Shown in pieces: positions 57,101 through 60,760 of a stretch of DNA of 64,000 nucleotides. Origin of the DNA: Escherichia coli (GTDB taxonomy: Bacteria; Pseudomonadota; Gammaproteobacteria; Enterobacterales; Enterobacteriaceae); the NCBI RefSeq assembly GCF_030384885.1, contig NZ_CP128613.1. The stretch is one strand, 5' to 3'. Within the stretch, counting starts at the first letter, position 1. Each line of letters starts with the position of its first letter. Made by a program: the position numbers.

Positions 57101-60100
57101 CACAATTATTTATAAAAAATATCAAACTTTTCGATATAAATAGTCCGGAAGATTTAATGATTTTTGATAGCCCCGATGCATCTTCTATTTTTGATACCCG
57201 GGGGTACCTCTCGACGTATCATGTTCAGCCAGATTTACTCGATTATAAGAACAAAATAATCATCCTTTTGGTTAAAATTCTTAATCATATTAATGACAAA
57301 AATAGCAAATACAACACTGAGGAAAAGAAAGTTTTCTATAACAAGTTATTGGCACCACTACGCCATATAAATAACGACGGAAATAAAATATTGATATTAA
57401 ATTATCTTATAACGAACATCTTTACCTCCACAAATTCAAATCCTGATAGTTTGCTCTTTGATGCCATACTGGATATTGCACATAACTCTGTTCACAGAGG
57501 ATATTTAAATCAACATAGTTTAATCAGACATCGCTGCGTCCAACACGCACTGATTAACATCATCTCAAAACAAACAGACATTGACTTAAAAATAAAATGG
57601 ATAAAAGATATAGTTTTAGTGTTGAAGTTACAACATGATGATTTATCGAAATGTATCAGCCCACTGATTTTCGCTATTGAATCGATAAAAACAACTAGCA
57701 TTAGCGATGCGACAATTAAATCCTCTTCACAAATATTAAAATTGCATAATTATATGGAGATGTGTTATACACTTTTTGATAGCTTTCCAAATTTAATAAC
57801 TGAATATAATGACTTATTCACGGATTGTATTTCTATTGTTACACAATACGATCTGAGAGGATATTTCAGCAGACTGTTTGAGATGATAGAGATTACCGAC
57901 AATGAAACTAAAAAGAATACAACTGCTTTTTTAATTAGCAGAATTGAATCCCGGCATTTATATCAACCTAAAATTGCCGCTCAATCTTTGAAATTGTTAT
58001 TGAATACAGATATTCCTTATGCATATTCATCATTGCCAACATTACTTAATATTCTACAAAAAACAGTTTATGAACCGGGGCATCTGGAGTTACTCGATAA
58101 AGTGTTAAAGTTATGTGCCAAAAATATTCAGGCGTCAGAATTTGACAGTTTATTGGAACTGCTAAAGATATATGGTAATGAAACGACTGCACACTTTATT
58201 TTGCTTAGGGAGATAGTCGGATACACTATAGACAATGAAAATAATAAAATCAGGGACAGAATCAAGCTAATACTGAATCACATATCTCATAATACTTTTC
58301 CAGATGATGAACAAACACTTTATGCAATAGCATGTTTATTCCAGACTTTCCCAGAATTTGTTTATGAATATCAACCAATGTTATTAACAATAATTCAAAT
58401 TGCAAGAAGAAATAATTTCATTGCCATTTTAGATACACTAGATAGATCATAAAGCAAATTTATTAAAACAATAAAATCAGACATGTCATGCATGTCTGAC
58501 CGTGTTACCTGAATAATGGGCAAAAGCCTGTGATACTCTTTTGCCCTTACATGGTATTACTGCGCAGCGGCAGGTTTACGCGGACGGCGGCGACGTTGTT
58601 GTTCGCCTGCAGGTTTGGCATCGCCGAGGCGGCGAGACGGTTTTTCTGCAGGTTTCGCGCTTGCAGATTTCGCACCACCTTCTCCACGGCGTGGTTGCTG
58701 TTGACCGCGACCACCACCTTGCCCACGACCGCCGCCGCCACGTTGCTGGCGACCGTTCTGGATCGGTTCGGCTTTGATTGACGGGTCCGGCTCATAACCC
58801 GGAATCGCAATGCGTGGAATCTCTTTTTTCAGCAGTTTTTCGATATCACGCAGAAGTTTGTGTTCATCCACACATACCAGCGATAACGCTTCACCAGTTG
58901 CCGCTGCACGACCGGTACGCCCGATACGGTGGACGTAATCTTCCGGTACGTTTGGCAGTTCATAGTTGACGACGTGCGGCAACTCTTCGATATCCAGACC
59001 GCGTGCAGCGATGTCAGTTGCCACCAGAACACGAATATCGCCCGATTTAAAATCGGCCAGTGCACGAGTACGCGCACCTTGCGATTTATTACCGTGGATC
59101 GCCGCACTGCGGATACCATCTTTATTGAGCTGTTCCGCCAGATGGTTAGCGCCGTGTTTGGTACGGGTAAACACCAGCACCTGCTGCCAGTTCCCTTTAC
59201 CAATCATGTGCGACAGTAATTCGCGTTTACGTTTCTTATCGACAAAGTGAACGTGCTGGGTCACCTGATCAGACGCGGTATTGCGGCGTGCCACTTCAAT
59301 TTCCAGTGGATTATGCAGCAGTTTTTCCGCCAGGTTTTTAATATCGTCAGAGAACGTGGCGGAGAACAACAGGTTCTGGCGCTTCGCTGGCAGCTTAGTC
59401 AACACACGACGGATATCGTGGATAAAGCCCATGTCGAGCATACGGTCAGCTTCATCAAGGACAAGAATTTCCACCTGATCCAGCTTTACCGCATTCTGAT
59501 GTTCCAGGTCCAGCAAACGCCCCGGCGTTGCCACCAGCACATCAACGCCGCCACGCAGCTTCATCATCTGCGGGTTAATGCTCACACCGCCAAATACGAC
59601 CAGCGAACGAATGTTCAGGTATTTGCTGTAATCACGGACGTTTTCGCCAATCTGCGCCGCCAGTTCACGGGTTGGGGTAAGAATGAGCGCACGTACCGGA
59701 CGACGCCCTTTGGCGTGCGGCTGGCGAGTGATCAGGTGTTGCAACAGCGGCAGCGTAAAGCCCGCTGTTTTGCCGGTACCGGTCTGGGCACTGGCCATCA
59801 GGTCGCGCCCTTCCAGCACCGCAGGGATCGCCTGCTGCTGAATAGGGGTGGGTTCACGGTAACCCTGCTCGGCAACGGCGCGCAGGATATCAGGGCTTAA
59901 CCCCAAAGAATCGAAAGACATAACTACTCCGAACCGCCCCGACCGTTACCGGTGTAGTTTTCAGGGAGATACTGAAAAGGAAAATGACAAAAACCACAAT
60001 GTCATGAGGGGGCGGAGTGTAGCAGTTTTTGTGACACAGCGCATAAATTATCCCTGTGACTGGCGTAGCTAAAATTCTTAGCCATACTGGACAACTCCAG

Positions 60101-60760
60101 TATGGAGACATAATCTTAATCAATCATTTGATTAAGAATGGACTGTGCGATGAATAATCCTGCCATGACAATCAAGGGTGAACAGGCGAAAAAACAGCTG
60201 ATTGCTGCCGGACTGGCGCAGTTTGGCGAATATGGAATGAACGCCACCACCCGCGAGATAGCCGCCCAGGCCGGGCAGAATATCGCTGCCATCACCTATT
60301 ACTTCGGTTCGAAAGAAGATCTATATCTCGCCTGCGCCCAATGGATTGCCGATTTCATTGGCGAGCAGTTCCGTCCACACGCTGAAGAAGCCGAACGTTT
60401 GTTCGCGCAACCACAGCCGGATCGCGCAGCTATTCGTGAACTGATCCTTCGTGCCTGCAGGAACATGATTAAGCTGCTCACCCAGGATGACACCGTCAAC
60501 CTCAGCAAGTTTATCTCCCGTGAGCAACTCTCTCCTACGGCAGCCTACCACCTGGTGCATGAACAGGTGATTAGCCCGCTACACAGCCACCTTACACGCC
60601 TGATTGCCGCCTGGACCGGCTGCGACGCCAACGACACCCGCATGATCCTTCATACCCATGCGTTGATTGGTGAGATTCTGGCGTTTCGTCTTGGCAAAGA
60701 AACTATTTTGTTACGTACCGGCTGGACCGCGTTCGATGAAGAAAAGACCGAACTGATTAA

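Follow-up and report, generated by a model that had tools for sequence, protein, structure and literature searches.

The spacer between the divergently oriented genes rhlE and cecR in Escherichia coli contains two perfect palindromes in the stretch of DNA analysed here, a window of 64 kb to which all coordinates below refer. The operator of the TetR-family regulator CecR in this spacer is already known, and the palindrome closer to cecR (hereafter P2) corresponds to it; the other palindrome (P1) is a lineage-specific by-product. In the joint assignment of P2 as the CecR operator and of P1 as a by-product that is not an operator we place considerable confidence, although somewhat short of certainty.

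A divergent locus with two palindromes

The gene rhlE, which encodes a DEAD-box RNA helicase, is located on the minus strand (58557-59921) according to the ORF listing and the RefSeq annotation of the orthologous locus. On the plus strand, cecR (also known as ybiH; 60150-60821) encodes a TetR-family regulator and is the first gene of cecR-ybhGFSR, as assigned from the ORF listing, RefSeq annotation, Pfam, and PDB; its product carries the Pfam domains CecR_C (3.4e-35) and TetR_N (1.3e-13) and has the experimentally determined CecR structures 9i1x and 1t33 as PDB hits. The two genes are divergent and separated by an intergenic spacer of 228 bp, a context that had been described in a preceding sequence-only reading of this DNA and that is confirmed by ORFs, annotation, and domains alike. 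Of 83 loci examined, 79 retain the same divergent order. The window itself belongs to an unusual, rare Escherichia lineage; of 5,423 complete E. coli genomes, 4,470 share only 90-95 % identity with it over 58557-63548, and for a 3.7-kb stretch the identity amounts to 95 % with K-12 and to 97.4 % with its nearest complete relative.

The presence of two perfect inverted repeats in this spacer, likewise put forward in the sequence-only reading, was corroborated at the proposed coordinates both by reading the sequence and by a repeat finder (59900-60180), with each repeat extending 1 bp further per arm than had originally been written. P1 consists of CCATACTGGA-CAAC-TCCAGTATGG (60082-60105) and P2 of TCTTAATCAA-TCAT-TTGATTAAGA (60114-60137), neither being assigned to a strand. 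Both have a 10+4+10 geometry, and their centres lie 32 bp apart, a separation of about three helical turns.

In the entire 64-kb window there are just 14 perfect inverted repeats whose arms measure 9 nt or more and whose loop does not exceed 10 nt, the remaining ones being, by appearance, mostly terminator-type hairpins between genes, and P1 and P2 each occur in the window as a single copy. When the 228-bp spacer was shuffled 20,000 times, one repeat with 10-nt arms was obtained in 0.2 % of cases and two such repeats in none. The pair exceeds chance under this naive null, and P1 on its own also looks improbable, given the small fraction of shuffled spacers that contain even one. For P1, however, the naive null is misleading, since the common E. 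coli allele at its position is a dyad with 8 of 10 pairs and is therefore at chance level (shuffled spacers of the same size are expected to contain about one 8/10 dyad each).

The CecR operator and the predicted cecR promoter

The core of P2, TTAATCAA-TCAT-TTGATTAA (60116-60135, again without strand), is nested inside the perfect 10-nt arms and has no second exact match in the window. Orthologous loci were compared for 80 species representatives, ranging from Escherichia to Kosakonia and Pluralibacter and from 99 % down to 72 % in CecR identity, and all 80 of them possess the box TTAATCAAT-CR-WTTGATTAA directly upstream of cecR. When conservation was evaluated column by column for 81 sequences, in an ungapped register anchored on this CecR box, at least 99 % conservation was seen at the 16 core positions that belong to the arms, and the two inner bases of the centre turned out to be variable, with scrambled, change-saturated sequence flanking the core. 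In most other genera the centre reads TCGA, which results in a perfect 20-bp palindrome (TTAATCAATCGATTGATTAA), as opposed to TCAT in Escherichia. At closer range, just one of the 29 positions in 60109-60137, a segment comprising the predicted -10 element of cecR plus P2, varies among nine Escherichia sequences, and an alignment of the window with a K-12-type genome showed 60109-60170 to be invariant, P2 thereby being the same base for base.

The distance from the end of P2 to the ATG of cecR (60150) is 13 bp, and the spacing of P2 from two conserved upstream blocks, CTGGACA and TAnnnT, is fixed and ungapped throughout the 81 sequences. The first of these blocks (60087-60093) reaches 1.35-2.0 bits per column at its constant distance to the CecR box, with none of its seven positions variable within the nine Escherichia sequences, and harbors the predicted cecR -35 element TGGACA (60088-60093, plus strand), which matches the consensus at five of six positions. 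In the second block, T60111, A60112, and T60116 are invariant and C60109 and A60110 are 94-98 % conserved in the same set of 81; the predicted -10 element on the plus strand is TAATCT (60111-60116, with a 17-bp spacer), and CATAAT (60109-60114, with a 15-bp spacer) is an alternative reading of it, both put forward on grounds of conservation. A consensus scan for promoters and terminators on both strands between 59850 and 60250 called neither, and the promoter assignment was made from conservation, the register TGGACA-N17-TAnnnT being fixed across all 81 sequences. The best reading is a predicted sigma-70 promoter for cecR composed of TGGACA, a 17-bp spacer, and TAATCT. In this register, P2 would include the end of the -10 element together with the transcription start, which is predicted near 60122-60124. 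With either -10 reading P2 starts within or directly after the -10 element, a layout typical of classical occlusion-type repression.

A CecR homodimer sitting on P2 would cover the downstream end of the -10 element as well as the predicted start and, with P2 spanning both, bound CecR would be expected to occlude RNA polymerase and to repress cecR-ybhGFSR, including cecR itself. Binding of a ligand (chloramphenicol or cephalosporins, according to the literature) to the C-terminal domain would in turn release CecR. In published work, CecR has been reported to repress cecR-ybhGFSR and to activate rhlE. Genomic SELEX (gSELEX) characterized it as a single-target regulator with its site in the cecR/rhlE spacer, and ChIP-exo located the main CecR site in the same spacer and yielded a palindromic, AT-rich motif. 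In addition, the CecR i-modulon acts as a repressor regulon, with deletion of cecR derepressing a clean five-gene module.

The proposal of the sequence-only reading that one of the two palindromes serves as the CecR operator holds for P2, which is essentially invariant across Enterobacteriaceae and overlaps the predicted -10 element and start of cecR. The palindrome footprinted with CecR is reportedly AATTAGTT-AACTAATT, and the arms of the P2 core, TTAATCAA and TTGATTAA, are the exact complement-strand reading of this box. We infer that P2 is the ordinary, already described TetR-type autoregulatory operator of CecR; the identification is strong, and occupancy by CecR is drawn from the literature together with this box.

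Compared with the CecR box of K-12 (Yamanaka et al. 2016, Microbiology 162:1253), P2 displays the same sequence at the same position next to a gene with TetR_N and CecR_C domains, and nothing of substance is different. Features in common with TetR/tetO and AcrR-type operators are a regulator of the homodimeric helix-turn-helix type, a dyad of about 20 bp that spans the predicted -10/start region, and, as reported, autorepression that extends to the neighboring efflux operon and is lifted by a ligand. Unlike in divergent loci of the TetR or AcrR type, however, cecR shares a transcript with the ABC-type efflux genes, and its divergent partner is an RNA helicase gene that is reported to be activated rather than repressed.

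P1 and the question of a second regulator

The two arms of P1 fall into different parts of the predicted cecR promoter, with the left arm (60082-60091) overlapping the conserved -35 region and the right arm (60096-60105) located in the spacer between the promoter elements. Nowhere in the intergenic region is variability higher than in the right arm, in which 9 of 10 positions vary within nine Escherichia sequences and the columns carry only 0.05-1.09 bits across species. In its K-12-type form (CCCCTATGG / TCCCCTATGG), it pairs with the left arm at 8 of 10 positions. A 36-mer with the K-12 sequence, used as positive control, was found exactly in 3,426 of 5,426 complete E. coli genomes, and the corresponding 36-mer of the window with the perfect form of P1 in none of the 5,426. 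Extending the query to a 71-mer, only 2 of 5,423 genomes came within one mismatch, and all others had at least three; these two, which are the closest E. coli genomes, both carry CCAGGATGG with 9/10 pairing. Perfect P1 was recovered once in 241 million metagenome records, namely in contig SKET01002358.1 (99.57 % identical to the window over 10.8 kb), and it is a genuine inherited allele common to the window and this independent contig. Partial dyads with 7-9 of 10 pairs recur at the P1 position in E. coli and the cryptic-clade group. Outside Escherichia, typically only 1-4 of 10 homologous arm positions are complementary. In other genera, the 54 nt preceding the box contain no better dyads than expected from shuffling, and none is kept at the P1 position.

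We conclude that P1 is probably not a separate operator, and we assign no function to it. Its left arm would be under selection as a -35 element, and its right arm would represent spacer, of which the length matters and the sequence does not; in a rare lineage, such a drifting spacer would have become exactly complementary to the -35 region next to it.

As regards the origin of the perfect form, it may have been completed by a templated quasipalindrome mutation, that is, a strand switch copying the left arm into the right one. This scenario, which we regard as unlikely, concerns the origin of P1 and not its function and is compatible with the explanation favored here. Relative to K-12, whose allele also has T at 60108, the window differs by an adjacent change of CC to AG at 60099-60100, both bases restoring pairing with invariant -35 positions, and as single-stranded DNA the P1 hairpin is predicted at -9.7 kcal/mol in the perfect form versus -4.2 kcal/mol for the K-12 allele. 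The resemblance to quasipalindrome correction, as generally known from E. coli, lies in an 8/10 dyad in most E. coli that is perfect in one lineage owing to adjacent, pairing-restoring changes. Outgroup clades, however, already hold each of the bases singly, MOD1-EC7003 having A at 60099 and SCPM-O-B-8794 having G at 60100, so that AG is not necessarily derived by a double change and the K-12 CC may itself be derived. As the whole right arm is hypervariable, ordinary drift is sufficient and explains the data equally well.

From the different sequence of the second palindrome, the sequence-only reading had suggested a second regulator acting on rhlE or cecR; for P1, this would be a further dimeric transcription factor with P1 as its operator. 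P1 is indeed a perfect 24-bp dyad with a low naive chance probability. It overlaps the cecR -35 element and sits some 40-65 bp before the start predicted for rhlE, where repressors and class I activators are known to act. The suggestion nevertheless finds no support in the comparison: the perfect dyad is absent from the complete E. coli genomes, as noted above, an absence from other E. coli having been named in advance as refuting the proposal; the half-site in the right arm, rather than being conserved in orthologous promoters, shows the highest variability within the spacer; and other genera retain no dyad at this position. Furthermore, the gSELEX and footprinting work reportedly describes CecR as a single-target regulator with one site in this spacer. 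Altogether, a second regulator at P1 appears very unlikely. Two more specific candidates, a LexA and a FadR box, were set aside, as the spacing in CTG(G)...(C)CAG appears to be wrong for either, and P1 as a repeated or mobile element was discarded as well, since neither the window nor the retrieved loci hold it more than once.

In a broader sense, the perfected P1 might be a recent regulatory innovation of this rare lineage, either a new site for a dimeric regulator or a structure-prone element. If true, it would rewire cecR-ybhGFSR, rhlE, or both relative to all other E. coli, but we consider this a long shot. Against the reading of P1 as a by-product stand the 10+4+10 geometry that it has in common with P2, its position about three helical turns from P2, its status as an inherited allele, and the recurrence of dyads with 7-9 of 10 pairs.

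Still less probable is a lineage-specific nucleic-acid structure, be it a hairpin in a transcript started upstream or a cruciform that changes the output of both promoters. The predicted hairpin is strong compared with shuffled sequences (z = -6.5), which follows from the perfect complementarity of the arms. On the other hand, a scan of 59850-60250 revealed no T-run or terminator-like site after P1, the element is not conserved, and a permissive Rfam search of 59700-60400 returned two sub-threshold matches only (15.8 and 19 bits versus gathering thresholds of 45 and 80). Moreover, P1 lies upstream of both predicted starts and is therefore probably not transcribed. Arms of ten bp are short for cruciform extrusion.

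Binding of CecR to both palindromes, in analogy to TetR-family systems with two operators, is barely credible: the identical 10+4+10 geometry with centres 32 bp apart and 5 of 10 half-site positions common to P1 and P2 by eye are outweighed by the dissimilarity of the half-sites (CCATACTGGA versus TCTTAATCAA), by a P1 right arm that lacks the conservation seen for cecR and P2, and by a literature that reports a single CecR binding site.

The rhlE leader and the meaning of the locus

The 228-bp spacer as a whole can be described as two predicted back-to-back divergent promoters. On the minus strand, conservation points to a predicted rhlE -10 element, GATAAT (60052 to 60047), preceded by a weak -35 element near 60075-60070. 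In this model, the -35 elements of cecR and rhlE stand back to back about 12 bp apart, and relative to an rhlE start predicted near 60040, P2 is located about 85 bp upstream. A speculative explanation for the activation of rhlE that has been reported for CecR would be that the two promoters compete and that this competition is relieved.

Downstream of the predicted rhlE promoter, the alignment uncovered a strongly conserved minus-strand leader of about 119 nt (59922-60055 including the promoter region), with 82 invariant columns between GGGATAWTTTATGCG and the rhlE ATG in 28 species and only 3 of 119 positions variable within nine Escherichia sequences. In predicted folds, ACUCCG near its 5' end pairs with CGGAGU of the Shine-Dalgarno region. 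RNAalifold proposed 21 pairs, none of them compensatory, as is to be expected for a sequence that hardly varies, and the single-sequence z-score was an unremarkable -1.16. The leader corresponds to no Rfam family (search of 59700-60400), and a literature search gave no description of it; conserved mini-ORFs were considered for it and rejected, the start codon being lost in Enterobacter. Within the spacer, this leader constitutes a more promising lead than the palindromes.

As for the palindromes, the case for a second regulator was dissolved by population and cross-species comparison, and P1 may serve as a caution that a striking palindrome in a single genome can arise from a constrained -35 element beside an unconstrained spacer. 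What is new from the comparison is that the CecR box and the promoter geometry are fixed across Enterobacteriaceae, with the central 4 bp free to vary. CecR controls an ABC efflux operon tied to chloramphenicol and cephalosporin sensitivity, and the significance of identifying P2 as its operator lies mainly in the correct annotation of this site.

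Source lineage and the strain-variable island beside rhlE

The window derives from a divergent Escherichia lineage. Its segment 58557-63548 shares 90-95% identity with 4,470 of the 5,423 complete E. coli genomes, among which the top identity is 97.7%. Identity amounts to 95% for K-12, 92-94% for cryptic-clade-type species representatives and 99.57% for the metagenome contig SKET01002358.1. Between the end of rhlE and an ORF of 762 aa (52032-54320) lies a strain-variable island (54466-58452), which harbors, on the minus strand, a 670-aa ORF whose match to the type III secretion HECT-type E3 ubiquitin ligase effector family is weak, scoring 85 bits where the cutoff is 500; in the annotation of the two closest E. 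coli genomes, the ORF is labelled 'type III effector'. The island also includes an AT-rich 561-aa ORF on the plus strand (56767-58452) that matched no Pfam or NCBIfam family and is apparently absent from strain R32_14_1F.

The rhlE leader

The promoter-proximal region of rhlE together with its leader of about 119 nt (59922-60055, minus strand) is nearly invariant across species: 82 columns are identical throughout an alignment of 28 Enterobacteriaceae species and, within Escherichia, 3 of the 119 leader positions vary. In the predicted fold, the Shine-Dalgarno sequence of rhlE would be sequestered in a helix; no covariation was seen in the leader. An Rfam search returned no family for this leader, and no description of it was found in the literature.

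Repeats in the window and the centre of the CecR box

The longest perfect palindrome of the window, TTCTGCATGGTTATGCATAACCATGCAGAA (38196-38225; 15-nt arms, zero loop), is probably the terminator hairpin of rhtA, since it lies 9 bp past the rhtA stop codon and is followed by TTTCT; a dps-like gene starts downstream, at 38486. One copy of an 8-nt direct repeat, AGACATAA, is found at 59916-59923, where it overlaps the start codon of rhlE, a gene of the opposite strand; the other, at 60106-60113, overlaps the predicted cecR -10 region. The repeat most likely reflects chance.

The CecR box, the palindromic CecR operator, was compared between the window and the orthologous loci L009-L083. Its centre (60124-60127) read TCAT in Escherichia and one gut Enterobacteriaceae isolate, TCGT in some Kluyvera and TCGA in nearly all other genera, the latter turning the box into a 20-bp perfect palindrome, TTAATCAATCGATTGATTAA. 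Given this variation between genera, recognition by the CecR protein apparently does not extend to the central 4 bp.
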